A DNA stretch of 64,000 bases from Mytilus edulis. Lineage: Eukaryota. Position numbers and translations under genes: made by a program. Each line of letters begins with the position of its first letter. The stretch's first letter is position 1. The DNA lies in contig NC_092352.1 in NCBI RefSeq assembly GCF_963676685.1, positions 6,076,001-6,140,000 of the forward strand, written 5' to 3'. The notes beneath the pieces were generated by a model. It was not told the origin of the DNA. It saw only the letters and a list, made by a program, of their open reading frames with translations, and made no database searches. Shown in pieces: positions 7,721 through 54,262 of the stretch.

Positions 7721-8216
7721 CGTTAATATAGTCCAGCATGATCGTACAACACCACGGTATTATTATTTTAATGTTCGTGTATTTGTCTTTCTTTAATCAA
7801 GCAATAAAATAAAAATATGTGAACACGTAGGATACATTCAATTAAATATCAGTACTGCCAGTTTGGTACGGGGTCCGCTCGCCCCAAAACACATTCGCCC
7901 CTCAAGACCGTTCGCACCCTATTTTTCTGCAAATGCCGGTAAGTCGTCGTCAGTAAATCTAATTTGGCTTGGTTTCATGGTGCTCTCACCAGACACTGAG
8001 GTTCTCGTCAGCCCCCATTACCGTGGTCGCAATGCGCATGGTAAACAAGACAATATATCATGACTATGTACTATGAAATTCTGTCCTCATCTATAAAATT
8101 ATGTCTTGAGATGGACAAATTTTCATAGTGGAATTTGGTCTGTTTGATTACAATAATTCACAGATGAATAGTATGAAATTTTGTCCTGCTAAAGGGAAGT
8201 AATCATTTGTTTATAT

Positions 8217-8246
8217 CAGAGACATATATACACATACATGTCTCTG
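8217..8246. mobile_element. 30-bp P-type excision footprint or minimal element
   Basis: CAGAGACATATATACACATACATGTCTCTG flanked by the 7-bp direct repeat TTTATAT (8210-8216, 8247-8253). Confidence 0.7.
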
Positions 8247-8883
8247 TTTATATTAAGACAATATTTCATAGACTGATTGTTATGAAATTTTGTCTTATGA
8301 AGGGGAGGTTATCATCATATATCATGATGGTTAAAAATATCATTAAAGTGTTTTCTTCAATTGACAATAACAAAAAAGAAAATAATAATAAATAGATACA
8401 GGTACATAAACATGATAAATAGAAAACTAGTTTTGTCATCATGGATGGCAAGGAGTATAAAATACTTTTTGAGTTTCTCAGTCTAAAAGTTTCACTGGAA
8501 GGAATTTCAGAAAATCAGAAGAGAGTAATTAGTAGAAAGTCTTATTACTTTTGTATACAGAACAATGAAATTTATTTCAAAAGTGTTAATAAGAAATCAA
8601 ATGAAGTTATGAAAAGACTTGTGATTCATAAAGACAAATTATAAAGAGTGATGTATAGATATAAATATATATATTAATAACCAAATTACAAAATACATTT
8701 GTACTTTTTTATTATTATTCAAAAATCTGCATGCTGCATGTTTGTGTAATATAACTTGTATTAATTTGAACAAGAATTTTTATTATGGACAGTATTCTAT
8801 AGGGAAAATTAATATTATGCTGTTGACAAAATTTAATATAAAATATTGTTAGCAGACACGTTTTCATAATGATATATTGTCAT

Positions 8884-9612
8884 CAGAGACATGTATGTGT
8901 ATGTTCCAGACCGTATGAGTATTTCGACCGTACACGTACGGTCTGGACCGTATGCGTACTTTTTCAAAATACTCATACGGTCAGACCGTACGCGTACGGT
9001 CTGACTATTATTAAAAAGTTGGTCAAGTTTATTAGATACAAATGCATATAGCAGATCAACATAACTTAACTATCAAATTAATATAAAAAAGTTCAATTGT
9101 AATTGAAACTAAAACTTTATATTTTAACTTGTTTTTAATTAACGCTAATTAAATATGCTAATCTCTTGTATTAAGCATGTCGATCAGTAGTACATTAATT
9201 GTATTATGAACGCTGAAATTGAACATATCGGAAGTAAACATAAAGTGGGAGTTCAATTGTTTTAAAATATTTAGCAACTTTACCAAAAAGAAAACAAATG
9301 CAAAAGAACATGCATGAACTGCATACATGAAATTGCTAAAAATATTACGTTACTTGAATTGTGTCACCTTGGGCGAGAGTACCAAAATAGGATTCATATA
9401 TACAATTAAACAAATACCTAATTTCAATTGTTCGTTTGTTCATTTTATCTATCTAATTGTAACAAATTATCAATAACAATTTGTAAAACTAAAAATAAAG
9501 ATTGTTTCAATTTAACCCATATGATCAAGTAACATGTATTGTCAGATCGTACTGGACCTTACGCGTACGGTCCAAATACTCCTATGGTCTGGAACATGTA
9601 TATATGTCTCTG
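8884..9612. mobile_element. Non-autonomous TIR element, P-superfamily-like, nested in the Ginger-like remnant
   Basis: TIRs CAGAGACATGTATGTGTATGTTCCAGACC.. / ..GGTCTGGAACATGTATATATGTCTCTG, 7-bp TSD TTGTCAT (8877-8883, 9613-9619), subterminal gaccgtacgcgtacggtc palindromes. Confidence 0.8.
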
Positions 9613-10404
9613 TTGTCATTGACAGAATTTCATAGTGAAATATTGTCATGGACAAAATTTCATAGTGAAAATTGTCATTGACAAAATTTCATAGTGAAAT
9701 ATTGTCTTTAAGGCGGTGACAAAATTTCATGGAAAAGCACAATATTTCATAATGAAATAGTGTCCTTGACAATATTTCATTATGAAATGGTGTCTTAAGA
9801 CAATATTTCATATGAAATTTTGTCCAACAGACAATATTTCATGGAGGACAATATTTTATGTTACAATTTTTTGACTATTTATGGTCCACAAATAGTCAAA
9901 AAATAACATAAGGACCTAAGAGCTAAGGTTCCGCAGCTACATGAAACTAAATTTAGATATTTGTATTTAAAAAAAAAGTAAATAAATAAATGGGGTTTGC
10001 CACATCTCTGGAGTAGCAACTCTCAAGACAAATACTTTTTTATTTAATAAATAGTACCTGTATGACTATTTCAATAGTTTATTTTACAATGTTACATGTA
10101 AAATACTGTATGTTGTATCAATTATATATGTTATGTGTATATTTTTGGACCAAATTTGGAAAATAAAATTTATCTTATCTTGTATATTCACAGTTGTATC
10201 ATATTCGAGTTCAGACTAGTATTATATTCAAATCATTATATTTTTCCTAAACATGCATAAAATATTTGCCACTGGACCTTAGCCTTAGGCAACAAAAATC
10301 AAACACAGATTTTAGTTGGTAATTTTGTGAGTTTCCAAGATTTAACCACATGCCACATGTGGAGCAGGATCTGCTTACCCTTCCAGAGCACATGAGATCA
10401 CCCC

Positions 10405-10540
10405 GGGGTTGGAACCCCCCCTTTTTTTTGGACGATCAATGTATTTGAATGGGAATATGTGATTGAAACCCCCCCCCCCCCCCCTTTGTCCTGGGTTAGG
10501 AACCCCCCCTTTTTAAAATGGCTGGATCAGCCCTTGGACC
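10405..10540. repeat. Short interspersed MITE-like repeat (related copy at 53958-54155)
   Basis: Shared ..acgatcaatg(c/t)atttgaatgg..ccccc..tcctgggtt..ggaaccccc..aaatg(g/a)ctgga in both copies. Confidence 0.5.
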
Positions 10541-10719
10541 TGCATTTTGGGGGTTGGGGGAACATGCCCTTTTCGGTGGTGAAATCTTTGTTTTCTATTG
10601 CTGATCACAATGAAGAAAAGCATAGCATATAGGAGTATTTCTCTGAGCCCTGTTTCTTCATCAAAAGTTTATTCATGATTTGTTACTGTATTCATAAAAA
10701 CGTATTAATCATATTTCAG

Positions 10720-13689: not shown

Positions 13690-15411
13690 TTACAAAAGGC
13701 TTGAATTCAAAAGTCCTTTTTCAAAACAACGTAAAATGTCTTGTCCAGAAGCACCATGCTTTGTAAGAACATTGGCGATTTGTTCATTTGTCTGAATCCA
13801 TTTTACTTCTTTAAGCTCTCCATCTTGAAGTAATTGCTTTATTGCATTGATCTCCACCCTCAATCTCTTTTCTCCAACAGGTTTATCAGAGTATATTGCA
13901 TGATAAAGGTCTTTGTTGTCAACGAAACAATCTACTGGAGTATGCATCAAATCGTTCTCATTATGCATTAATTCCTTAAACAGAGCTGCTAAAGATATAA
14001 CACAGTCCACACCATCAGCTAAGGCCAAGGCTTCACTTGCTAAAGTACTACGTACAACTCTTCTTAATTTCTTAGACTGCCAAGTGATTGGGTTCACTTT
14101 ACCATCATCGCCCATCAAAAACACAACATAACCACCCTGACTTCCACCATCTGGAAGATTTCCAAATGATGCATCACTGAACAAAATAAATTTCACATCA
14201 TGTCCAAGATTCTGGAATTGCAGTGAAACGGGATCGTTTTGCACCTTCCTAATTATTTTATTGACTTTCTTTAGATCTTCAATAGTGCTAGACTTAATTT
14301 TTTATGAAATAGCAGCAACATCAAACGCAATGTCTGGACGTGTTTGTCTTGCTAACCATAATAATTGTCCTATTTTTGACCTCAATAGTGTCTGTTCTGA
14401 TGATGAAAGAGGAGATGTTTTAACTCTGTCTTTATCTATTAAAACCGTCTTTAACATTCTGACATAGTCTTGCTGGCTGAGAACAATAGTTTCATTTTCT
14501 TGGCTGAGGTCAAGACCTAAATATTTGAAAGACTCACAGGATTCTTTCCCTACCTTGAACATATCCCTAATTCTGGACACAACACTTTTCTCAAAGGTAC
14601 TGGATCCTGCCCAAAGAAAGTCATCTACATGAACTGCTAGGACACCAGTCAAACCTTTTTCATTATACCAATAAAAAACTGCTGAATCAATTTTGGACAC
14701 TGTTCCTCCACAATCTAGCAATGTTGCTTTAACTTTTTCATACCACTTTAAGGATGCATCAACAAGACCATATACACATTTGTTAAGGCGCCAGACTTTA
14801 CCAGTTGCTTTAACTTCTTTAGGAGGTCTCAAGTAGACTTCTCTTTGCATTTTCTCTCCTTGAAGAAAAGCAGTTTTAATGTCCACAGAATTAATTGACC
14901 ATCTTTTACTAGCAATAATTGATAAAATTAGTCGTAGAGACTGCTTTTCACATGTTGGTGAATTCTTTGGTATCTCATCTAGACTGTCTTCTTCAAAACC
15001 TTTTGCTACCAATCTAGCTTTTCTATGAAATTCGTTCTCTAATTCTTTCATAGTGTAAACCCATCTTGTTGAAATACAGTTTTGACCATTGTCTTCAACT
15101 TCTTCAAAAACATTGTGCTTTCTCCAGTTATCCAGTTCTGCCTCTCTAGCCTCAGTAAAATCAATATCACTTAAAAGTACATCTTCATTCAAGTCATCTG
15201 ACTGGTTAACAACTTTCAAATCATTGACTGTTCTTAGATCAATTGATATCTGATCACCTCTCATATTTTCTGGCTGATTGTATTCTATATTATACCAGCT
15301 CTTTTTAACAGTTGTAGCCTTTCCTGCCCTGCCTAAAATTATTGCTTCTCTTGTGTCATTTTCACCAGGGATTTTAAAATCACTATCTGATCCTTCTTTA
15401 ATTTCATACAA
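13690..15411 (-). pseudogene. Copia pol: reverse transcriptase and RNase H, with in-frame stop at 14302-14304
   Basis: KARLVAKGF, DIKTAFLQG, VYGLVDAS, HVDD; RNase H FSDASF, SEALA, VDNK, QIANVLTK. ORFs 14302-15411 and 13690-14244 are in the same frame, separated by one TAA. Confidence 0.9.
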
Positions 15412-18092
15412 TCATTTTCCTGGGACTCAGGATTATGTTCCATACTTTCCTCATGTATATCATTATCTGCCTGATTTTCCAAATCCAAACTGTCTCTCCC
15501 TTCAGACTCAGGACCATCTTCACCATTCAAACTACCATTCAAGCTACCAGCATGACTATCATCTTGATCAGCACTTTCGTCTGCAGATTCTTCAACATTT
15601 TCTTGATTTTCATCATTCTCAGTATCATTTTGATGAGGCTCTTCATCGTCACTCTCATAGTATACTAAGTCATGATCTGGTTCAGTGTTGTTATATGTTG
15701 CAGCTTGAGGCTTACGCACATGAGTTGACTTTGCTGTATGCTTATGAATAATCTTTTGTTTTCTTTCAACATCAATGTCTCTTTTTATTCTACTTTCATG
15801 TACACGCACATATGTACCTCCATATCTTACAAAAACAACTACGTTATCTTGACCAATTACCCAGCCTGGTCCTTTCCACTGATTGTCTCGTAGGAAGAAA
15901 ACTTTGTCACCATTTTTGAATTTTTCTCCTGAAGGCCGGATTTGCTTACGTAGTGCCCTTCTTACTTTCTCAGAGGATTCTGCGGCAATAAATGCTTTTC
16001 TAGCTTCATGTAAGCCAACTAAATGCTTTCCCATAACATTACTAATTGTTGTACCTTCTAATGCAGGAGGCTTGTTAACTATAGACGATGGCATGTTTGG
16101 GTTCCTTCCAAAAACTATTTGATATGGACTGTAGCCATAGACATTCAACAAACTGACTCTGTTCTTAGCATGAACTGCCCAACTGACGGAAGTCTCCCAT
16201 GAAAGGTTAGAGCTTTCTCTCATTTTATTGATTGTTTCTGTAAGCGTTGCGTTGTGTCTTTCCACTACACCATTGGACCAAGGACTATATCCTGCTGTTG
16301 TTTTAACTGACATGTTCAAGTTTTCTGCCATGTCTCTAAATATCTGTGAATTAAATTCACCTCCATTATCTGTGTAAACACCAACTTCAGGTGCACCATA
16401 AACGCCAACCCATATCTGCATGAACTTATCTACAATGACTTTAGAGTCCTTTCTTCTGATGATTGCAGCTGCACTCAATCTGCTAAATAAGTCAATAACA
16501 TGTAGATAATAAAAGTTATGGTCAATTTCATGAAGGTCCATTGCCACAATTTGATTGAAATCATTTGCATGTGAAAAGGCAACCACTGGTTTAGCTTTTG
16601 GATGCTTGAACTTATGGCAAATTAAACACTTTGTGCAGATATCTTTAAGAATGGTCTTTGTTTCAGAATCAACAGAACCAGTACTTTGCAACAGGGATAA
16701 AAGTTTATCTGATGATGCATGTCCAAACTGCTTATGCAACTTTAAAAGAATCTCCTTTTTCTTCTTAAAAGATAATTTTGTGTCAATGATCAAAACCTCC
16801 TCACTCTCATTCTTATTTCTGTTTGTGAATTGCTTGTCTTTAATGTTGATACAGTAATGACCACTTGAAGTTAGGTTTACATCCACTAATTGTCCAAACA
16901 TGGTAACCTTGTCATTTCTGAGATCTAGGATAGTGCTTGCTCTTTTCAGAGAGGTTTTACTTAATAATAACGGTATTTCACAATCCACCACTTCTGTTTC
17001 AATTGAGCACTTAACTGATCCAATAAGTGCTGGAATTTTCACTTTCTGATATGAATATACTGTTTGTCCATCACCAAATTTGAATGGTACATGACTTTCA
17101 TTACAAGTAAGTTGATCAAGTCCTGGATCAAGTGATTCTACAAATTCGTATAACCATTTAGAACCACACACTGTCTTGGAACATGCAGTATCAATAACTG
17201 CAGCATTGTAGGCTTCTGCGACAAACACTGTTAGAGGTTTAAATTCTTGTGCGGAGGTAAATAATGTTATATTTACAATTTCATTTAACTCATCACTCTC
17301 ATGTTCTGTTAAATTCACATCTAGCTGCTTGTGAGGACAATCCTTGACCCAATGAAATTTGGAATCACATATTTTACATCTTGAGACATTTCCATTAAAG
17401 ACTGGATTCATTTTAGTCTTAAGTCTACTAGAGTTGGTTGATCTATCAGCTCGATTACGAGGAAAATTTCTTCTTGAACTTCGACCTCTCTGATAATACC
17501 CATCACTGACAAAAGCTGATTCTTCTTTAACAGTTACAACAGAGTCTTGTTCTCCAGGAAAATTTTGAGATTTTGATGCAAATATCCTATTCAAAGCAGA
17601 TTTCATTGTGTCGAATTTAAGGTCAGAACATGCAGTTAATGCCAGCTGACGATTACTTTGACTTAAACCAGCATTGTCAAGAAGTTTAAAAGCTAGAATT
17701 GCATCTGGGAGTACCATTTCATATTTCTTACATTTATTGTATCTCTGCTCAAACTCAATGATATAATCAGACATGCTTACATCATCTATTCTGTGGAACT
17801 TATCAAATACAGTATATGCAGCATAAGCCTGATCTATTTTATCCTTCTCAAAAAGCTTGTCCAACTCAGTTATCAGCTTATCTACTCCTTCATCAACATT
17901 TAAATCAGTGGGATCTACTTCTAGGGCTACTTCCCTTGGTTTTCCTTGTAGCGACAAAGCTAAAGCCAAACCTCTCTTCTTCTTGTCAAGATCTGTCACG
18001 AGTTGCCACATTTTAACTTCATTTTTCCATTGTTGATAACTTTCATCTTTGGTCAAACCTGGTGGGTTCTTGTAACTAGGTGCTGTTGCCAT
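15339..18092 (-). CDS. Copia gag-protease-integrase polyprotein (frameshifted from RT near 15380)
   Basis: Zinc knuckle CKICDSKFHWVKDC, protease VIDTAC, HHCC (HKQFGH..CLIC), DDE (MDLHE, TDNGGEF, VERHN); ATG at 18092 just after the PBS. Confidence 0.9.
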   Translation of the reverse strand: MATAPSYKNPPGLTKDESYQQWKNEVKMWQLVTDLDKKKRGLALALSLQGKPREVALEVDPTDLNVDEGVDKLITELDKLFEKDKIDQAYAAYTVFDKFHRIDDVSMSDYIIEFEQRYNKCKKYEMVLPDAILAFKLLDNAGLSQSNRQLALTACSDLKFDTMKSALNRIFASKSQNFPGEQDSVVTVKEESAFVSDGYYQRGRSSRRNFPRNRADRSTNSSRLKTKMNPVFNGNVSRCKICDSKFHWVKDCPHKQLDVNLTEHESDELNEIVNITLFTSAQEFKPLTVFVAEAYNAAVIDTACSKTVCGSKWLYEFVESLDPGLDQLTCNESHVPFKFGDGQTVYSYQKVKIPALIGSVKCSIETEVVDCEIPLLLSKTSLKRASTILDLRNDKVTMFGQLVDVNLTSSGHYCINIKDKQFTNRNKNESEEVLIIDTKLSFKKKKEILLKLHKQFGHASSDKLLSLLQSTGSVDSETKTILKDICTKCLICHKFKHPKAKPVVAFSHANDFNQIVAMDLHEIDHNFYYLHVIDLFSRLSAAAIIRRKDSKVIVDKFMQIWVGVYGAPEVGVYTDNGGEFNSQIFRDMAENLNMSVKTTAGYSPWSNGVVERHNATLTETINKMRESSNLSWETSVSWAVHAKNRVSLLNVYGYSPYQIVFGRNPNMPSSIVNKPPALEGTTISNVMGKHLVGLHEARKAFIAAESSEKVRRALRKQIRPSGEKFKNGDKVFFLRDNQWKGPGWVIGQDNVVVFVRYGGTYVRVHESRIKRDIDVERKQKIIHKHTAKSTHVRKPQAATYNNTEPDHDLVYYESDDEEPHQNDTENDENQENVEESADESADQDDSHAGSLNGSLNGEDGPESEGRDSLDLENQADNDIHEESMEHNPESQENDCMKLKKDQIVILKSLVKMTQEKQ

Positions 18093-18113
18093 CTTTATAA
18101 GCTCTGCTACCAC

Positions 18114-18251
18114 TGTTGATTGGCTATTTATGGCTTCAATATAATTCTATTATCTATTCTAATGTCTTTACTAAACTATAAACTAAACCCACCAAGTAAC
18201 ATGTACCTGAAAATAATATAAACAAAATAATAGAAAACACAGTAGTTAACA
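18114..18251 (-). repeat. 5' LTR of the Copia element
   Basis: Adjacent to the PBS; direct repeat of 13419-13556. Confidence 0.95.
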
Positions 18252-21860: not shown

Positions 21861-22390
21861 TATTTATTAACCAACTAAGTACATTATTGCCAAAAATGAC
21901 TGGTTATTAAAAATAACATATTTTCTGTAATGGCTCTGTTTTTTCTGTAATGGCCCTGTTTTTTCTGTAATAGTCCTGTTTTTCTGTAATGGCCCTGTAT
22001 TAATGCCCGGTTTGTCTGTATAAAGCACAGTTAGGGTTTTTAATAAAGTTAATAAAATTAAGTTGTAAAGAATATAATACTTTTTGTATTTTATTTTATT
22101 TAGTAACCAGCAACCAACATTAAAGAACCATATATAGGGATCACTGTTCCTTCTGTTTTTCAACACATAACTTCTGTTAACTTAATATCTTGGATATTTG
22201 GTATATTAACACATACACTTTTATTCAGTTGGTTAATAAATGTATTAAGAAATGGGTGTTTTTATAATGGCCCTGTTATATGTCCGAGGTCTGTTATAAT
22301 GGTCGAGGAAGTCTGTAATGGCCCGAGGCAACACCGAGGGCCATTACAGACATCCGAGGCCATTATTACTGACCGAGGATTAATACTATA
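21861..22390. mobile_element. Unclassified non-autonomous element with ctgtaatggccct repeats and a terminal hairpin (second copy 26288-26817)
   Basis: 15-bp IR atttattaaccaact/agttggttaataaat, ~19-bp tandem repeats at 21920-22000, hairpin tctgtaatggccc..gggccattacaga at ~22312-22350. Confidence 0.5.
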
Positions 22391-22417
22391 ATAATAGCAG
22401 GCGAATCAATTTATAGC

Positions 22418-23536
22418 ATGGAAATAAATAAGGTAGCAAGACCGTCAAGATTAAGAAACTCACCAGTAATATATACGCCAAGTAGTATATACCAAGGAAA
22501 ACCACAGCAAATGTCGTACATCTTTAAAAATGCAAGAAAAGCGCTAGATAAGAAAATGGACGCTGCTGAAAGGGAATTGGAAATAGAAATAACTTTGAAA
22601 GCCGGAACCCTAGTCATCACTTGTAATGCAGGGGCATATGAAGCACTCAAGCATGCCATATACAAATACTATAACGAATCTAAAGAGCTAAGTTACAAAC
22701 TACATACAAAAACAAGTAAGGACAATATAGGCAGCTCTAGCAATCAAATCATGACTGTTGCAGAGTCGTTATCAATCAAGTTCAAGAACACAACTAAGTC
22801 CAAACGACAACTATACCGTATCAATATGTTCAACACAACATGCAAAATAGATGCTAATGGGTATATGCTAAAGGACTTTATTTCAAAAGATTTGCACAAC
22901 ATATGTGAGGACTTCAAAGCTGACAAATCCTACAAAAATATAAACATGCAAATCAAGAACATCTGTATAACTGCTAAAGAACATTTAGATAAAGCAAATG
23001 GACCAAACAACAATGGAAAAACTGTAGACAAGGAGATAAACAAATTAGCTGATTCTGCAGTGCATATTACAACAACACGTGAGATCAACCCAAACCAATA
23101 CAATCTGCTAAAAAATGGACCAAACCATAATGACAACACATTACAACAGATGGCAATAGAAGAAATATCAACATGCTCAAGGGAAGGAGAAGAATCTACT
23201 GATCCAAAAATACAGAATGACAAAATCCTAGCAATTGATGAGAACCGAGAAACCTCTAAGACCGAGGAAAACAGTGAATGCCAAGGATGTGAACGACCAC
23301 TAACAAATACATCAGCAATTGAGTGTTCAGCATGCAAACTTTGGTTTCACACCTCATGTGAAGGGCTAACTGAATATCACATGGAAAACCACGTATATGA
23401 CTCATTTACATGCTCCTACTGCAAAACACTAGATCTAACAATACCATTTGAAGATAGACCATACCAAGAAGAAACTCTACCAAAACAAATTATGAACTCC
23501 ACTCATATAGAAGTCTCAAATGAACAACCCAATTAA
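22418..23536 (+). CDS. LINE ORF1-like protein with PHD finger (truncated)
   Basis: CQGCERPLTNTSAIECSACKLWFHTSCEGL..FTCSYC is a C4HC3 PHD; a coiled-coil-like continuation follows in other frames. Confidence 0.65.
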   Translation: MEINKVARPSRLRNSPVIYTPSSIYQGKPQQMSYIFKNARKALDKKMDAAERELEIEITLKAGTLVITCNAGAYEALKHAIYKYYNESKELSYKLHTKTSKDNIGSSSNQIMTVAESLSIKFKNTTKSKRQLYRINMFNTTCKIDANGYMLKDFISKDLHNICEDFKADKSYKNINMQIKNICITAKEHLDKANGPNNNGKTVDKEINKLADSAVHITTTREINPNQYNLLKNGPNHNDNTLQQMAIEEISTCSREGEESTDPKIQNDKILAIDENRETSKTEENSECQGCERPLTNTSAIECSACKLWFHTSCEGLTEYHMENHVYDSFTCSYCKTLDLTIPFEDRPYQEETLPKQIMNSTHIEVSNEQPN

Positions 23537-26044: not shown

Positions 26045-28098
26045 GAATGCCAAGCTAACCTACACAGCAACTAGCTATTAAACAACAAATTACAATTGCC
26101 AACCTACATCAATATTCACATCAATTATTTCAGATCATTTACCTAACACCGCCAATATCTATTACATATTGAGATAAGCTATCTATTACCGCTTACACTC
26201 TAATACTAATATTATACTAAATTATATGTGCAGTCTGCCTGGAATGCAAGTTAACTAGCACAATAATTAATAACAGTATACTATATATATTTATTAACCA
26301 ACTAAGTACATTATTGCCAAAAATGACTGGTTATTAAAAATAACATATTTTCTGTAATGGCTCTGTTTTTTCTGTAATGGCCCTGTTTTTTCTGTAATAG
26401 TCCTGTTTTTCTGTAATGGCCCTGTATTAATGCCCGGTTTGTCTGTATAAAGCACAGTTAGGGTTTTTAATAAAGTTAATAAAATTAAGTTGTAAAGAAT
26501 ATAATACTTTTTGTATTTTATTTTATTTAGTAACCAGCAACCAACATTAAAGAACCATATATAGGGATCACTGTTCCTTCTGTTTTTCAACACATAACTT
26601 CTGTTAACTTAATATCTTGGATATTTGGTATATTAACACATACACTTTTATTCAGTTGGTTAATAAATGTATTAAGAAATGGGTGTTTTTATAATGGCCC
26701 TGTTATATGTCCGAGGTCTGTTATAATGGTCGAGGAAGTCTGTAATGGCCCGAGGCAACACCGAGGGCCATTACAGACATCCGAGGCCATTATTACTGAC
26801 CGAGGATTAATACTATAATAATAGCAGGCGAATCAATTTATAGCATGGAAATAAATAAGGTAGCAAGACCGTCAAGATTAAGAAACTCACCAGTAATATA
26901 TACGCCAAGTAGTATATACCAAGGAAAACCACAGCAAATGTCGTACATCTTTAAAAATGCAAGAAAAGCGCTAGATAAGAAAATGGACGCTGCTGAAAGG
27001 GAATTGGAAATAGAAATAACTTTGAAAGCCGGAACCCTAGTCATCACTTGTAATGCAGGGGCATATGAAGCACTCAAGCATGCCATATACAAATACTATA
27101 ACGAATCTAAAGAGCTAAGTTACAAACTACATACAAAAACAAGTAAGGACAATATAGGCAGCTCTAGCAATCAAATCATGACTGTTGCAGAGTCGTTATC
27201 AATCAAGTTCAAGAACACAACTAAGTCCAAACGACAACTATACCGTATCAATATGTTCAACACAACATGCAAAATAGATGCTAATGGGTATATGCTAAAG
27301 GACTTTATTTCAAAAGATTTGCACAACATATGTGAGGACTTCAAAGCTGACAAATCCTACAAAAATATAAACATGCAAATCAAGAACATCTGTATAACTG
27401 CTAAAGAACATTTAGATAAAGCAAATGGACCAAACAACAATGGAAAAACTGTAGACAAGGAGATAAACAAATTAGCTGATTCTGCAGTGCATATTACAAC
27501 AACACGTGAGATCAACCCAAACCAATACAATCTGCTAAAAAATGGACCAAACCATAATGACAACACATTACAACAGATGGCAATAGAAGAAATATCAACA
27601 TGCTCAAGGGAAGGAGAAGAATCTACTGATCCAAAAAATACAGAATGACAAAATCCTAGCAATTGATGAGAACCGAGAAACCTCTAAGACCGAGGAAAAC
27701 AGTGAATGCCAAGGATGTGAACGACCACTAACAAATACATCAGCAATTGAGTGTTCAGCATGCAAACTTTGGTTTCACACCTCATGTGAAGGGCTAACTG
27801 AATATCACATGGAAAACCACGTATATGACTCATTTACATGCTCCTACTGCAAAACACTAGATCTAACAATACCATTTGAAGATAGACCATACCAAGAAGA
27901 AACTCTACCAAAACAAATTATGAACTCCACTCATATAGAAGTCTCAAATGAACAACCCAATTAAACTACCCCCAAACCAACATTCATTTTGATTTTTGAT
28001 TTTCCTTTTTGAATTTTCCTCGGAGTTCAGTTTTTTGTGTTTTTACTTTTTTCATAAAGAAAACAAACTTGAAGGAGCGGTAAGTAACAGATCTGAAC
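26045..28098 (+). repeat. Near-exact 2.05-kb duplicate of 21618-23670 abutting the assembly gap
   Basis: Offset 4427; the only difference I saw is one extra A in a homopolymer at ~27633-27638. Confidence 0.9.
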
Positions 28099-28198: not shown

Positions 28199-31141
28199 CA
28201 TCTATACCAATATGACACTGCAAGTTGAATGGGAAGACCAAACAACCCAACATGTCAACATACAACAAGGAATACGTCAAGGAGCTAAACTATCTACTCT
28301 CCTGTACAAAATGTATAACACCACTATCCTAAAGGCAATCACAGGCAGTCACCTCGGAACAAAGATAGGTGCGGACGACATTGCTCTACTAGGTGACTGA
28401 ACCACAGGATATACAAGCAATGCTTAACATTATTGAATTCCATACAAAGAGAGACATGGTGAAAATAACCCAGAAAAATCAGAAGTCCTATGTACATAAA
28501 AGGAAAGAACTACCAATAAAAACATACACCCTCGGTGAGAAACAAATCAACAGAGTAGACAAGCTGAAACATCTTGGTATTAGAAGGAATGTCAAAAGCA
28601 AAGTAAACACTGATGAAAGGCTAAAAACTGGTAGACACACATATATGCACTTCTAGGATCTAGCCTACATGCACGTACAGGAATGTGCCCGCTATACTCT
28701 GCAAAATCTGGAAGACATATGTAGTCCCAAGATATCTCTATGGTCTGGAAGTACAAATCTGCACAAAAGCTGATATATACTAGCTGGAAAAACTACAGAG
28801 AAAAATATTTAGACAATTCCTTAGTCTACCTGAAAGGACTGCAACCTCGGCTCTCTATATTCTCCTAGGAGCGGAACCAGTTGAAACTATATAAGACAGA
28901 AATATGCTATCATTATTCCTTACAATCTCTCGGCTAGATAATGCAAAAGAAAAGACAATCCTACAGTGGGAACTTGAAATTGGAAAGGACTTCACAGAAT
29001 CCCTCATAAACAGAATAGATAAAATTTTAAATAAATAGTCTGCCAAATCCAAAAGAAATTTTAGCAAACCCGCCATCAAAATACAAATGAAAAAACATGC
29101 TGAAAAAAGCCATAAATATATACTGGTTAAATATCGGGAAAAAGGAATGCCTAATAAAAACAACCATTAAGTACTTGACAATCCAAGAAAATCCTACTGA
29201 AAACCCACATAATATCTGGAAAGCTGCCAGAAACAATCAGAATGACATTCGAAAAGCAGAATTCAAAAGTAGGCTAATAACTGGAACCTACATGCTACAA
29301 ACAACTAAAGCGAAATTTAGCAAAAATCAAATATCAAGAATATGTGAGCTATCATGTTCCAAAGCTGAGGAGGACATTAAGCACTTTCTGCTGGAATGTG
29401 AGTCTCTCGAGAGTGTTCGACTAAAACAGATGAACAAATTTCTATCTTTAACCGAGTTCAAAGGGGAAGGTGATAAAGCTAATTATAAAGAGGATGTGCT
29501 TCAAATTATATTGCACTGCTCAAAGCTATCAACAACTAGCCTATCCCACCTAAAAGCAAATGACCTGATAGAAATAGAAAAACAAATCTCAAAATTTCTG
29601 TCACAAAATGCATAAGAAACGCACCAAAATGCAAACACGATGATACGACTAGATTAGCTGCTTACATCTAATTATATGCCAAGACCTTGGCAGTTCACCT
29701 TTTACTCTAATTTTACGATATATGAAAGTTTTTTTTTAGTTACTGATATTTTTTTTTTTAATTGGTAACTTTATCTCTTAAAAGCTATTTTTTTTACCAT
29801 ACTGCCAAAAATTTAATCCCATACTTTTTGTTTTGTTTGATCAACTTATTTTTACCTTTTATCCTTTGATTTTCACATTTTAATCCTTTAATTTAATAAA
29901 CATTTGATGGAAATGTCTCATGAAAAGGAATCAAAACGGTTTTTAAAATCAATAACTCCAACCTAGGTAGAATCATAAATGATGTAAATAGCACTTAGCT
30001 GTAAACACTTGTTCTTAAAATTCAGTTTTACCTGTATATAAAGTTTTTTAAACTTGAGCACCCCACCACACTGTAAATATCTGTAAATATTTTAAAACCA
30101 TATATCCCAAGTGGGAGTGCTCCGATATATAACAGAGGAAATTACCTGAACAGAACAGAATTGGTCATTTCGGAATCTTCTCTTTTTCTAATTGTTGAAG
30201 GCCCTACGATGAGCTATAGATATTAGTTTGGTGACCATGTCATTTGGTTTACACGGAGAGTTGTCTTATTGGCAATTATGTAAAAGCTCTTTTGTTCCGA
30301 CGTTGGAAAGTTCCGGGCAGAAAGAACTAACTAGTCGAAAAGTTCCGGAGGAACTTATTAACTATAGTTACTTTGTTCTTCTGGTTTAAAAGTTCCACCG
30401 GAACAAAGCGACTAGTTGAAAAGTTCCAACTATTTTTAATTTGTACCAAACTTGGACAGAACCTAGTTTATGATCAAAAGCTAGTATCTAGAAGGAAATT
30501 TTGTTAATATTTTTGTGAAAAAAATTGGTTGCTTATATAGGGAATCACTCAAGCATGACTGGAGCGGGCCCCCACTTATGAAAATTTCTAGATCCGCCAG
30601 CGAGTCCAATGATTGGGTTTAATATGCGAGCACTCGATCCAGTCTCTTTTACTGGAGACATTTGAACTCTGATGAACGTGATGGTATATACCATTAGAAA
30701 GTTCTTCTACTGCTGTAGTACTGTCAGTGTCTAGGACAGAAAGCAAACGACTATCACTGCCAACAAGCGTTACATACACAATATATTACATAGAACCTAT
30801 TGCTCAAGTGTCCGAGAAATGGACAAAACCGAAATAACGTCAACTTAGCCAAGACGAACACCTTACAAGAAAGCCTTTTACCACATAGTTAATGGGTTAC
30901 TCATATGCAGGGAGTATTTTCCCAAGCAGTCACTGATCAATGACATGTTAGATATCAGAATATACTTGTTAATTAAATGTCTCATTTCTCATTTACAAGA
31001 CATGTATTTCGTGTCAAAAATTTGACAACAATCCAAATTCACAGTATCAACCTGGCATAAATTGTCCAAACTTGTGTAAAACTGTTAAGTGGGTCTCATT
31101 GGGGTCTAAGCGTGACGCGGGATTGCCGTTTTATTGTAAGC

Positions 31142-34100
31142 ATGACACTGATAATATCAGGAATTGAACAAAACCCAGGCCCTGTTCAAAACGGCTGCGG
31201 AATATGTCGTAAATTAGTCAAAAGAAATGACAAAGCAATACAATGTGACGAATGTGATTTATGGATACATACACGTTGTACATCGGTTGACAACACAACG
31301 TACACTAAATTACAGAACACAAATGATCAATGGTTCTGCCAAAACTGCGTTGCACCATGCGGAATTTGCTCTGGCAACATACATAACTGTGACCCAGCAA
31401 TCGAATGTGACCGATGTAAAACATGGATTCATAACTCCTGTGCAATAGTGCCAAATAATGAATATAAAAACATACAAGCAACAAATTGTACATGGATTTG
31501 TCCATTATGCGATGAAACAAACTTATCAACATCATACTCAAGTACTTCATCAGGCATAGAAATCAACAATATATTTGATACACTCAGAAACAACAAAGAG
31601 ACACACACATGTAGTAGACACATTTATACCAGTAAGATCACAATGGTTTCCATCAACATCAATGGTTTAAGAGGAAAAAAACTTGAACTGCAAGCATATT
31701 TACAAACGGAAAACCCAGACATAGTAGCACTGCAAGAGACCAAAATCAATAACAGCATTGCAACCAATGAATTAATTCCAGACACATTGGGCTATGATAT
31801 ATACCGCAACGACAGAACAGGCAATGGGGGAGGCACAATGTTACTCGTCAAAACACACCTTGACTCAGCACCTGTGAAGATCCTCGAAAATGGATCAGAA
31901 TCTATTTGGAGCAAAATAGTATTGCAAGGAAAACAGCATTACATAGGAAGCTGGTATAGACCACCTGATGCCCCTTTGGATCAAGTACAACTTCTTAAGG
32001 ACCAAATGGATAAAATCAAGAAACTAGGAAAAGCAAACAAACAACCATGCATTCACATCTTGGCTGATTTTAACTACCGTAAAATAAATTGGCGGACAAA
32101 GCTAAATAAAGATACCAACACATGCCTTAATGGTAGTGACGGCCAAGCATTGATAGACATACTAAATGAAGCTAGTGCTGAACAACTCATCCTATTTCCA
32201 ACCAGGGAAAGTAATACACTAGACCTTTTAATAACAACATTACCAGGGCAGTTCACAGACATCCACTCACCTGATCGGTTGAGCGACCACGACATTGTCA
32301 TGGGTACTCTGCGATGCACAATACCAAGAAAAATAAGACCAGAAAGGACCTCCTACCAATACTCGAAAGGAAATTACAATCAGATGAGAGATGACTCAAG
32401 GGACTTTACCAGAGACAAATACTTCAACGGCCATCAAAATAACAGAAATGTGGAAGAAAACTGGATCATGATAAAAGAATTCATACTAGGAACCACCAAA
32501 ATAAATGTACCAACTAAAATATTAAAAGGAAAACAGTCAATACCATGGATAAATAAAAACATCAAGACCATGATAAAACGAAAGAACAGAACACATGCCA
32601 ACTATAAAAGAAACAACAGCATGAGAATAAAACGAAAATGGCAAGAATTAAGACGCAATATTAACAAGGAAATTGAATTAGCCCACAACAACTATGTCAA
32701 CAACTTAATAGGCGATATAAAACAAGACTCTAAACCCTTTTGGAAATATATCAACAACCAGAAAGCAGACAAACAGGGAATACCACCACTTAAGACTCAT
32801 GATAATAAGACCGCCGATACAGACCAACAAAAAGCTGAGGCATTGAACACTCAGTTTACAAGTGTATATACAGAGACAAAATATGAATCTGTTCCATACC
32901 AAACTCCTCCTGTAGACAAAATGATAAACATCATAGTAACAACAAAGGGTGTAGAAAAAAATACTAAAAAATATTAATGCATCAAAAGCGATGGGCCCTG
33001 ATGGTATACATCCAAGAGTACTTGAAGAACTGGCACCTAACATATCAGAGGTAATGGCTCACTTTTTCCAGCAATCCATCAACAGAGGAACCATCCCAGA
33101 CGAATGGAAAAATGCTAATATATGCCCACTATTCAAAAAGAACGACAGAACCATCCCAAGCAATTACAGACCAGTTTCCCTAACATGTATCACTTGTAAA
33201 TTACTAGAACACATCATTTGCTCAAACCTAATGCAGCACTTTGAAAAACACAACATCCTAAATAGCCGACAACATGCATTTAGAAGAAGACACAGCTGTG
33301 AAACCCAACTTATCAACGTTATACATGACTGGGCAACTGCTATTGATAAAAGGAAACAAACAGATATATTTATTTTGGATTTTGAAAAAGCTTTTGACAC
33401 CGTACCGCACGAGCTCTTAAAAAGTAAACTTCACAAATATGGCGTGCCCAAAAACATCTTAAATTGGATTGACGCTTTTCTATCTAAAAGATCTCAGTGT
33501 GTGATAGTAAACGGAGTTAAATCGGAAACATCATCAGTCCTATCAGGAGTTCCTCAAGGAACGGTTCTTGGTCCAATCCTATTTCTGGTCCATATCAACG
33601 ACATAGCAGATAACGTAACATCAGAAATTAGGCTGTTTGCAGACGACTGTGTATGCTACAGAGAAATTAATACTGAAGATGACTGTGCTGAACTACAGAA
33701 GGATATTGATACCCTAGGTAACTGGGCGACAGATTGGGGAATGAGATTTCAACCAGTTAAATGCAACATGATGACATTGAGTCGCAAGAAGAAAACAACA
33801 TCATTTAAATACACCTTGAAAAATACGGAACTCCAATTTCTAACATCAATAAAATATCTAGGAGTTAACATCACGAATGATCTACACTGGGGTAAGCACA
33901 TAGAGGAGATATGCAATAAATCTTACAGGACATTAGGTTTACTAAAAAGAAATCTATCCGCATGTCCACTTGAAGTTCAACTCCAGGCCTATAAAGGACT
34001 GATACGACCTGTCCTAGAATATGCAAGCACTGCCTGGGACCCACATCAACTATATCTCCAAGACCAACTGGAAAATGTACAGAAAAGAGCGGCTAGGTTT

Positions 34101-34437
34101 ATAACATCAAACTACACTGATTACGAACCAGGAAGTATGACAGCGATTTTAGATCAGCTACAATTACCCTCACTGAAAGACCGTCGTACACAAAACAGAT
34201 TAATTCTTTTCTGCAAGAATATACATGGTCAATCAAACTTACCATCTGACCAACTGAAAAAACCATCCCGTACAACTAAGAACATGCAGTCAACATTTCC
34301 TCCGACTTCAAGCAAAAACAGACACGTTAAAATACAGTTTTATCCCAAATACCATTAAAGATTGGAACCTACTACCACCGGATATCTTCACCAAAATTCA
34401 GACAGCAGAAGAACCAGCTAAAACCTTGAAATTGTAA
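31142..34437 (+). pseudogene. ORF2 PHD-PHD-EN-RT with two frameshifts
   Basis: An extra A in the A-run near 32955-32962 separates ORFs 31112-32977 and 32991-34358; a second shift near 34288 restores QHFLRLQAKTDTLKYSFIPNTIKDWN. Confidence 0.85.
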
Positions 34438-51244: not shown

Positions 51245-52770
51245 TTTTTGTAATTTATTTTTATTTCATCTGAAAATACACCAAGTATATATTGTGATAC
51301 ATAATTATATAATTAATTCATATTACATATAATGATATTAAATTTTTCAATAACAGTCTAAAATTAAAAAGTTAGTTATGCTAATTGTTCTAAATTTTCT
51401 ACTGGATCATACACATCCTTTATCACTCTGGATTAGAATACCTGAATATGCTGATAAGGTTAATGATTGCATCAGCCCTCTCCTATAGCCACATGCATCA
51501 CTGCCTATACAGTGATGTAAAACATGAGAGGTACCAGGAGAGGCCACCAGAGATCATTAACAGATAACATATTGGACAACATGTTGGACAGAGTCACATA
51601 ATAAATGTCAACCTAAGTCAAGGGGAGATAATTCAAATACAATCAAACAAAAACTAGTATATCAATATATATATATAACAATAGCAATAAACATAGATAG
51701 TACTTTTAAGATGCACACAAATCACTGTCCAGTTGTGATGTGCATCAACATATTATTAATTCTACATGAACTATTATAAAGCCTTAAGTAAGTACATAAA
51801 TAGAAAGATCTCTCCTCAAATGTGAACTAAGTTTTTAATTAATTCCCATTTACTATTAAATTTCTCTCTTGCTCTAGGGGATCTGTAAAAGGAGGTAGAT
51901 ATTTTTTCTATTTGGTAGGAATTTTTAATCATAGCTATGACACCTTTAAGAGTCGGTAATGAAGTATTAAAGCGACATGTATAAATATAATATTTAACCA
52001 GAATAGTGAATAAGTTTAGGGAAATATCCCAAGACTCTGACCCGAGAACAATATTTTCCACATTAAGAATTAAAGTTAAATTATTTTCAACTAGAAAAAG
52101 TGCTGCAATTTCTAACCACAAATTTCTAACTAGCATACATTCCCAGAAAAGGTGACTTATAGTTTCTTTAGTTTCATTACAGAAACTACATAAGTTAGTT
52201 TCTTTTAACCCGTATTTCTGCAATAATGCATTTGTAGCGAGAGTTCTATGTAAAATCTTAAACTGGAACATACTAAATTTGTTGTTTTTAGTGCAACAAA
52301 AGGGTAAACTATAAAAGAAATCCCAATTTTCTATATAAGTCCCTAGTTCCTTACACATTTTGTCTTCTTGTTTTGTAGGACGTTCTGTATACATTGACAA
52401 GAATTTTTTATAAAAGAACTGACATGACTTTTTATTGTTTTTTATAAATTCAAATTTATCGTTAGATATGTGAGTAATTTTCTCTGAAGTAGTGATTAAA
52501 TTTTTCCAGTCTTTTGGTATCATATGCAGCAAAGAATGGTATTCCAAGAAATTAATATTAAGATTATATTTTTCGCAGAATTCTTTTAAAGTAAAAAAAT
52601 TACTGTTTTCATCAAGTAAATCACCTATAAAGAAAACTCCTGATTCAACCCACCTCTGGTAAAAGACAGTTTTATTATTAATTTTCAAACTCTTGTTTAG
52701 CCATATGGATTGTTTCATGATCCCTTCAGCAGTGCCATTAGTGACAGTGTTTAGGATATTCCAGTTTAGT
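51245..52770 (-). mobile_element. 5'-truncated L1/Tx1-clade LINE insertion
   Basis: 16-bp TSD AAATTTAACCAAACTT (51229-51244, 52771-52786); short poly(A) and AATAAA on the minus strand; open ORF2 C-terminus. Confidence 0.9.
51816..52769 (-). CDS. L1/Tx1 ORF2 C-terminal fragment with zf-RVT zinc finger
   Basis: FQFKILHRTLATN..CSFCNETKETISHLFWEC; the frame stays open up to the truncation point. Confidence 0.85.
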   Translation of the reverse strand, partial: LNWNILNTVTNGTAEGIMKQSIWLNKSLKINNKTVFYQRWVESGVFFIGDLLDENSNFFTLKEFCEKYNLNINFLEYHSLLHMIPKDWKNLITTSEKITHISNDKFEFIKNNKKSCQFFYKKFLSMYTERPTKQEDKMCKELGTYIENWDFFYSLPFCCTKNNKFSMFQFKILHRTLATNALLQKYGLKETNLCSFCNETKETISHLFWECMLVRNLWLEIAALFLVENNLTLILNVENIVLGSESWDISLNLFTILVKYYIYTCRFNTSLPTLKGVIAMIKNSYQIEKISTSFYRSPRAREKFNSKWELIKNLVHI

Positions 52771-54262
52771 AAATTTAACCAAACTTGGCCACAATCATCA
52801 TTTGGGTATCTAGTTTAAAAAATGTGTCCGGTGACCCGGCCAACCAACCAAGATGGCCGCCATGGCTAAAAATAGAACATAGGGGTAAAATGCAGTTTTT
52901 GGCTTATAACTCAAAAACCAAAGCATTTAGAGCAAATCTGACATGGGGGTAATATTGTTCATCAGGTCAAGATCTATCTGCCCTGAAATTTTCAGATGAA
53001 TCGGACATTTCGTTGTTGGGTTGCTGCCTCTGAAATGATAATTTTAAGGAAATTTTGCTGTTTTTGGTTATTATCTTGAATATTATTATAGATAGAGATA
53101 AACTGTAAACAGCAATAATGTTCAGCAAAGTAAGATCTACAAATAAGTCAACATGACCAAAATGGTCAGTTGACCACTTTAGGAGTTATTGCCCTTTATA
53201 GTCAATTTTTAACCATTTTTCGTAAATCTTAGTATTCTTTTAGAAAAATCTTCTCCTCTTAAACTACTGGGCCAAATTTAACCAAACTTGGCCATAATCA
53301 TCATAGGGGTATCTAGTTTAAAAAATGTGTCCGGTGACCCGGCCAACCAACCAAGATGGCTGCATGGCTAAAAATAGAACATAGGGGTAAAATGCAGTTT
53401 TTGGCTTATAACTCAAAAACCAAAGCATTTAGAGCAAATCTGACAGGAAGTAAAATTGTTGATCAGGTCACGATCTATCTGCCCTGGAATTTTCAGATGA
53501 ATTGGATAATTGGTTGTTAGGTTGCTGCCCCTGAATTGGTAATTTTGAGGAAATTTTGCTGTTTTTTTGCTGTTTTTTTTGTTATTATCTTGAATATTAT
53601 TATAGATAGAGATAAACTGTAAACAGCAATAATGTACAGCAAATTAAGAACTAAAAATAAGTCAGAATGACCAAAATAGTCAATTGACCCCCAAAGGAGT
53701 TATTGCCCTTCATAGTCAATTTTTAACAATTTTCTTAAAATTTGAAGATTTTCAATAACATTTTCCACAGAAAGTACTGTTATAGATAGAGATAATTGCA
53801 ACCAGCAAGAATGTTTAGTAAAGTAAGATCTACAAACACATCACCATCACCAAAACACAATTTTGTCATGAATCCATCTGTGTCCATTGTTTAATTTCAC
53901 ATAGACCAAGGTGAGCGACACAGGCTCTTTAGAGCCTCTAGTTTCTAATAGTAACACAGTGGCGGATCCACATGGTGTTTTTTTACGATCAATGCATTTG
54001 AATGGAGACATATGGTTGGACCCCCCCCCCCCCTTTTTTTTTCTCCTGGGTTGTTGGAACCCCCTTTTATAAATGACTGGAATGAAACCACTGGAAATAT
54101 TTTCACCTAATTTCGGTTAATTTGAGATAAATTAAAGCTGCTGGATTCGTCCCTGTAATGTGACCAATAACCATAGAACTAAATAAATCAATCAGTCAGT
54201 TTGTGCATGTTTTTATAGTTAGTTTGTATATATATATATTTGTATACTCTGTAATCTTACAG

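Follow-up and report, generated by a model that had tools for sequence, protein, structure and literature searches.

We put at about 65% the probability that the 30-bp sequence at 8217–8246 of the window (the whole 64,000-nucleotide stretch of Mytilus edulis DNA that was analysed) is a product of P-type transposon excision, whose repair was filled in from a scar of the same kind 637 bp away at 8884, the latter being split later by a MITE. A preliminary description had noted the match between the two places and took it for the trace of a transposon that hopped from 8217 to 8884. The two sites are indeed locally related, but not by such a hop. The novelty of the analysis rests on the variable stagger suggested by the whole class of these scars, and on a register rule that may explain it, more than on the 8217/8884 locus.

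Two matching scars, one of them split by a MITE

The features of the locus are as follows.

8044–9864: host repeat bearing both footprints, with GTAA...TTAC ends, about 1.0–1.1 kb without its inserts
8210–8216: left 7-bp TSD of the younger footprint, a single copy (empty site) in all nine other host-repeat copies examined
8217–8246 (+): P-type excision footprint, the younger of the two; 18 nt come from a family-B end and 12 nt from the end opposite
8247–8253: right 7-bp TSD of the younger footprint
8877–8883: left 7-bp TSD of the older footprint, empty in at least six other host copies
8884–8901 (–): older footprint, left part; inverted twin of 8217–8246, closed by the MITE TSD at 8898–8901
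8902–9596: nested non-autonomous Ginger2-like MITE of 695 bp, with TGTTCC...GGAACA ends, a 4-bp TSD and TATA-type targets
9597–9612 (–): older footprint, right part, opening with the second MITE TSD copy (9597–9600)
9613–9619: right 7-bp TSD of the older footprint

Perfect TTTATAT repeats bound the 30-mer at 8217. Its first 16 nt are the reverse complement of the end at 9612, and its last 19 nt that of the end at 8884 (16 + 19 – 5 = 30), while TTGTCAT repeats bound 8884–9612. On both the direct repeats and the two end matches the preliminary description proves literally exact when the sequences are compared. The match is more than chance, because the 1.37-Gb genome has only seven copies of the 19-mer variant, this locus accounting for two, and the exact intact 30-mer has just three copies genome-wide. 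That the 30-mer is a P-type excision footprint, as was first proposed, is borne out by the genome-wide counts given below, and we hold this with high confidence.

The 12-nt part of the 8217 footprint differs by one substitution from a common 30-mer of which the genome has 68 copies. The supposition that this variant might be private to the two sites does not survive. Besides the further occurrences of the 19-mer, the substitution had a separate origin in a second host repeat, and the second end of family C has it natively. It is rare, not private. At one site of the second host repeat the 30-mer occurs in the common as well as the substituted form (L023, L024, L102, L103, L032).

The segment 8884–9612 had been read as the transposon that left the 30-mer. 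When 8902–9596 and one TGTA are taken out of it, what remains is the exact reverse complement of the 30-mer at 8217. The 695-bp unit so removed has inverted ends of its own and a TGTA duplication on either side. Thus what were described as asymmetric TIR variants are really two halves of one scar, and the ATACA regarded as a repair microhomology is the 4-bp TSD of the MITE plus one shared base. It is virtually certain that 8884–9612 is a composite of footprint and nested MITE, and not a P element. A P family made of such 729-bp units was considered and rejected, since only seven ends genome-wide carry both the scar and the MITE motifs, against 1,345 MITE ends.

The MITE has a 4-bp TSD in 17 of 19 paired copies, and in 12 of the 17 this is TATA. 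A 4-bp TSD is likewise found in 14 of its 19 closest relatives, which are up to 97% identical; 18 of the 19 paired loci among these lie outside any CAGAGAC footprint, and the nineteenth is the window copy. The TGT termini, the 4-bp TSD and the RTATAY target preference resemble those given for Ginger2/TDD (PMC2836005). In contrast to the TGTNR termini of that account, the ends read TGTTC, with C and not R as fifth base, so we call the MITE Ginger2-like only. TA-rich scars have been invaded repeatedly elsewhere, by the same MITE four more times, by a 6.4-kb insert and by a repeat-tailed insert (L028, L029, L032, L034, L021, L024).

Order of events and the origin of the younger scar

Both scars lie in a host repeat with subterminal 29–30-bp repeats, whose left tip is absent in the window copy. 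Short repeats ending in a C-run and a T-run occur just past it, at 10402–10573, and are shared with another locus (L024). The copies of the host repeat date the scars relative to each other. The C3 copy, with 10 differences in 793 bases, has the 30-mer uninterrupted at 8884, while at 8217 it has TTTATAT once only, giving a 37-bp gap in its alignment to the window. The C1 copy has the same 8884 scar, interrupted by a different insert of ~6.4 kb. The scar at 8884 is thus present in the C1, C3 and C9 copies, the last being that of the window, and the scar at 8217 in C9 alone; the more distant copies, at least six, are empty at 8884 also. Sites shared between host copies number one for C9 and C3, one for C9 and C1, and none for C1 and C3. 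Since the C1 and C3 paralogs carry the 8884 scar while their 8217 site is empty, the scar at 8217 is very probably the younger. Only the window copy has the 8217 scar and the MITE.

This order is the reverse of the one first described, in which the 729-bp element left 8217 and inserted again, in inverted orientation, at 8884. The sequence matches on which that account was built are exact; given that the 729 bp consist of a scar and a MITE, and that C3 has the 8884 scar intact with 8217 empty, it can scarcely be right. To save it, the MITE and the 8217 scar would both have to have vanished precisely from C3 and again from C1. In public runs from other individuals, joints skipping the 8217 scar occur in 3 of 4 and 4 of 4, and joints skipping the whole 8884 insert in 4 of 4; in these contigs the orthologous site is inseparable from the paralogs, and we attach no weight to them. 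Among the matches listed from these runs none had a full element at 8217.

Could the twin scars nevertheless record a local hop of some other kind? A full-length family-B element with the substituted end might have moved between 8884 and 8217, with its excisions joined alike. Local hopping is documented for P (PMC7776569), identical junctions recur at unrelated sites (25 different TSDs among 27 sampled common 30-mers), and scars both cluster and occur inside the ends of the elements themselves. Against this, the scar is in three host copies at 8884 and in one at 8217, and the 18+12 join would need to have formed independently two to three more times on the right side, or the 8217 scar to have been lost precisely. 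Moreover the 18+12 form accounts for 68 of the 491 family-B arms reaching base 18, and a family-B end having only this substitution is absent among the 100 of 156 intact ends listed. We regard such a hop as unlikely.

Two wholly independent scars are still less probable, requiring the common 30-mer to form at 8217 and to gain the same substitution by chance. The substitution did arise separately in the second host repeat, and neighbouring scars are enriched about sixfold; yet our own estimate, taking ~7% for a neighbour, 68/1,976 for the common form and ~3/70 for the same substitution, comes to ~1e-4. We find it very improbable too that the 729-bp composite was mobilized from 8884 to 8217 and excised again, with the MITE 4-bp TSD guiding the rejoining. 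A join at the duplicated TGTA would restore the 30-mer exactly, and the order of 8884 followed by 8217 is consistent with it. But TIR bases 19–31, common to all 156 intact ends and bound by the transposase (PMC7776569), are missing from the composite. Two events on a defective substrate would be needed, and the five scar–MITE composites found differ from one another in scar and in site, none having spread as a unit.

The reading we prefer as the simplest, and hold to be moderately likely, is that the 8217 scar was copied from its 8884 neighbor during gap repair. A family-B element would have inserted at 8884 in the host repeat and been excised to leave the common 18+12 scar, which would then have gained its one substitution, being seen in three host copies. 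The host repeat then spread to C1, C3 and C9, where its copies now lie. In the C9 copy a second element of the family would have inserted at 8217, generating a 7-bp TSD at a site that is empty in the paralogs, and its excision would have left an 18-nt single-stranded tail on each broken end. Priming of one tail on the 8884 scar may then have yielded a strand that paired with the other tail, and with it an exact copy in inverted orientation, substitution included. Finally the MITE, with its 4-bp TSD, entered the 8884 scar. That transposase made the site at 8217 is argued by its own 7-bp TSD, which fits the target preference of the family (T at position 2, A at 6).

There is a precedent for neighbouring scars serving as repair templates. 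At C4:62003200–62003282 (L332) an excision gap with its own TSD is filled by an inverted copy of a 34-bp scar 46 bp away, and the filler holds ~33 nt of that scar's flank as well; the corresponding distance in the window is 637 bp. Among 28 long-filler scars examined there is one clear case of a distant neighbour and one of the immediate flank, and for the rest local templates are no better than control. No pair of the 68 common 30-mers is closer than 48 kb, so copying from a neighbour must be rare. Where it does occur, a neighbour-templated scar can be mistaken for a local hop and lead annotation astray, as seems to have happened here.

A genome-wide class of scars and its parent families

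How common are such scars in the mussel genome? Short remnants, taken as two 8-base ends within 20–46 bp, number 1,976 sites genome-wide against 11 for the reversed control pattern. By size there are 1,577 of 20–36 bp, 399 of 37–46 bp and 200 of 47–76 bp, while at 77–106 bp the number falls to 31 against a control of 8; per base of length the density is 93, 40, 7 and 1 over successive size classes. Scars exceed the intact parent ends, 156 genome-wide, more than tenfold. The TSDs of 87 distinct sampled scars comprise 62 exact 7-bp repeats and 11 of 7 bp with one mismatch, and none is an exact repeat of 6 or 8 bp. In the open-access literature we found no genome-wide census of P scars.

The 47–76-bp class consists of fillers, nested scars and one host-amplified form, with one of 50 listed running into the interior of an element. 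A 49–50-bp scar with an internal partial duplication, amplified in a host repeat (L017, L020), inflates this class. The preliminary description proposed a scan for CAGAGAC(N<40)GTCTCTG, with a length ceiling near 34 bp expected from 17-nt overhangs. A ceiling does exist, but for blunt joins it lies at 36 bp (18+18).

The 68 identical copies of the common 30-mer, found at many different TSDs, might be thought the work of a self-copying mini-MITE, and the preliminary description had named such copies as grounds for rejecting a footprint. They are however part of a graded series of junctions, from 18+8 to 18+18 with TA fillers, that does not enter the TIR from base 19 onward. In addition, 18-nt staggers on a 30-bp unit should leave no duplex to integrate. 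A mini-MITE seems to us highly improbable, and the 30-mer is better taken as one junction of the excision series.

The scars are not evenly scattered. Within 1.5 kb there are six neighbour pairs in 86 loci against 0.95 expected, and none in 39 control loci; the pairs combine scars of different families, which speaks for shared hot regions as much as for hops. Other inserts are drawn to scars, and one scar can serve as the template for the repair of another. Two lie within family-B elements, ~300 bp from the element's own end (C10:54940286–54940349 and C13:50177093–50177114), and the first of these holds a family-D scar nested in a family-B scar. Three others with exact 7-bp TSDs hold 39–64 nt of captured unrelated DNA between their arms (L329, L330, L019).

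The real parents of the scars are elements of 2–4 kb with 31-bp TIRs. We distinguish family A (~4.3 kb), B (~4.1 kb) and C (~2 kb), although these and families D and E below may already be named in Repbase. The TIRs of A and B are 31 bp and begin with CA, one end of C having one extra base. The 7-bp TSD is exact in 16 of 20 elements examined; two lack a second end in the stretch and in two the repeats do not match. No transposase family was detected in 65 ORF pieces from ordinary copies of A, B and C, and no coding copy of C was found.

There are 19 matches to the P GTP-binding domain, two of them inside family-B elements with exact 7-bp TSDs (C10, C13). At their far end these two elements have 15 or 18 TIR bases fused to the transposase interior, as would be expected of a one-sided aborted gap repair. 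Two further matches are in family-A sequence (C9, C11), and at C9 a non-coding family-A copy aligns on both flanks of the transposase. The Pfam families PF21787, PF21788 and PF21789 match ORFs that lie within family-B ends (C10, C13) or are flanked by family A (C9, C11). By transposase, TIR and TSD, families A and B are accordingly classed in the P superfamily. Two more families were found.

C3:6920674–6932477 (L304, L280, L305): family D, with copies at C10:60.59 and 60.64 Mb and C11:7.52 Mb
C8:80882654 and C9:18790642 (L286, L279): family E, a P element with an 855-aa ORF, one end found

Family D is an 11.8-kb element with 7-bp TSDs in two of three copies examined. Its 930-aa ORF, which sits in the C10 copies, matches the solved fly transposase, 6P5A (E 3e-15), and the acidic, FD..N and NQD motifs align, which places family D too in the P superfamily; we read the acidic motifs as the putative counterparts of the catalytic D230, D303 and E531, the first being in a low-scoring stretch. 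A second ORF of 433 aa on the other strand has a weak match to a C2H2 zinc finger. No THAP domain was matched at E up to 1 in five ORFs.

Arm ceilings and the inner repeat

In families A and B and at the first end of C, only 36 of 1,082 arms that reach base 18 keep TIR base 19, and by eye two of the 36 run on into the TIR. Arms thus stop at base 18 at these ends. Within family B, base 18 is kept in 491 of 523 arms reaching base 17, and in family A one of 47 listed arms has A at 19 (by eye). The common long forms are 18+18 and 18+TA+18. The second end of C, the one with the extra base, is different: judged by eye, of its 35 arms 11 stop at 17, six at 18, 15 at 19 and three further on. Different again is family D, where 66 of 114 arms retain base 19 and 59 of those 66 also base 20 (by eye); A follows at 21 in eight arms, most of which can be read as blunt joins, and one arm reaches 22 (by eye). 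Among 20 sampled family-D scars, 11 have an exact 7-bp TSD and five a 7-bp TSD with one mismatch.

The ceilings are therefore 18 (A, B and first end of C), 19 (second end of C) and 20 (D). The differences between ends give Fisher p values of 1e-20 and 1e-50, calculated on arms, which are not independent events, palindromic scars being counted twice and host-amplified copies included. These ceilings suggest a stagger of 18–20 nt depending on the end, not one fixed at 17. The last retained base is A in every TIR, and arms one base shorter, each extended by an untemplated A, would give the same ceilings; the differences from end to end would stand even so. The long staggered cut foreseen for a molluscan family with a 7-bp TSD is accordingly supported, but at a ceiling of 18 per arm and not at 17 nt.

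What sets the ceiling? At all five ends it falls two bases before a shared GATTRG motif, and the best internal repeat of tip bases 3–8 begins right at the ceiling (18, 18, 18, 19 and 20). In A–C this score exceeds that of the next register by little (4.5 against 4.0), in D clearly (6 against 4), and in family D the tip and the inner repeat both differ, together, from those of A–C. Applied to the 23 bases of the fly end printed in PMC11368186, the same score has its maximum at 17, where the fly enzyme is known to nick; the rule was framed with the mussel ceilings already in view, and the fly is its one outside check. In the fly transpososome the transferred strand is looped back and base-pairs with the non-transferred strand in its 5′ part (PMC7776569), and the account of that structure describes the mechanism of P cleavage as unknown.

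We take it that the inner TIR determines where the second nick falls, whether via protein binding or via strand re-pairing, which are indistinguishable here. More specifically, P-superfamily transposases probably nick the non-transferred strand just before the internal repeat of tip bases 3–8, in the register at which the looped strand would re-pair in the transpososome, and not at 17 from the tip, so that the inner repeat would probably set the stagger. Drosophila would then have a stagger of 17, one mussel family staggers of 18 and 19 at its two ends, and another, in which tip and inner repeat changed together, a stagger of 20; this too we consider probable. For family E the register rule predicts a stagger of 19, and within 1.47 Mb of sequence examined there were no family-E scars. 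The intact 11.8-kb family-D element in the same genome can test the rule. If it is true, thousands of fossil scars from one assembly read out cut lengths; as it is, the scars give inferred lengths for five transposon ends without biochemistry.

The comparison with Drosophila is close. Junctions formed by the P element there have 17-nt tails and an 8-bp TSD, with 17+17 and 17+TA+17 forms (Chan, Yu and McVey 2010, PMC2895639). Like those described in that study, the mussel scars have TIR remnants of both ends between TSDs, with blunt joins of tail to tail, TA fillers, joins at short microhomologies and flank-templated insertions. They differ in their ceilings of 18–20 nt and 7-bp TSD, and in being ~2,000 fossil events in one assembly where those of Drosophila are laboratory events (PMC2895639). 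As in the P transpososome, the mussel families have a 31-bp TIR and an RNase H domain split by a GTP-binding insertion (PMC7776569, 6P5A), and the inner tip repeat of their TIRs would allow the strand re-pairing seen in that structure (PMC7776569). Of the GTP-dependent cleavage and strand transfer of canonical P, the mussel ORFs show the GTP-binding domain. Unlike the P transpososome, their stagger appears to depend on the end. The mussel families would work like fly P excision with end joining; because the stagger differs and THAP was not matched in the five ORFs, we do not file them as canonical Drosophila P or THAP9 type.

Within the P superfamily, 1360/Hoppel and Galileo also have a 7-bp TSD and a P-type transposase (PMC3698922), and in the literature searched we found no stagger length for either. 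A natural 27-bp remnant of BuT5, a P-mobilized MITE of D. mojavensis, has 12+15 bp of the two ends between the halves of a TSD (PMC3355041). It is a single case from which no ceiling can be measured, whereas the mussel scars are a whole class. P transposase has the 17-nt staggered cut as a hallmark; in the open literature this rests on the Drosophila enzyme, and we found no stagger other than 17 reported for a P transposase in open-access sources; the mussel ceilings of 18, 19 and 20, as deduced from scars, depart from it.

The window has other features of note by eye. Long ORFs lie at 13693–18146 (–) and 31061–34355 (+), both groups looking like retroelements, and at 51819–52814 (–), and a duplicated ORF occupies 22373–23533 and 26800–27645 (+).
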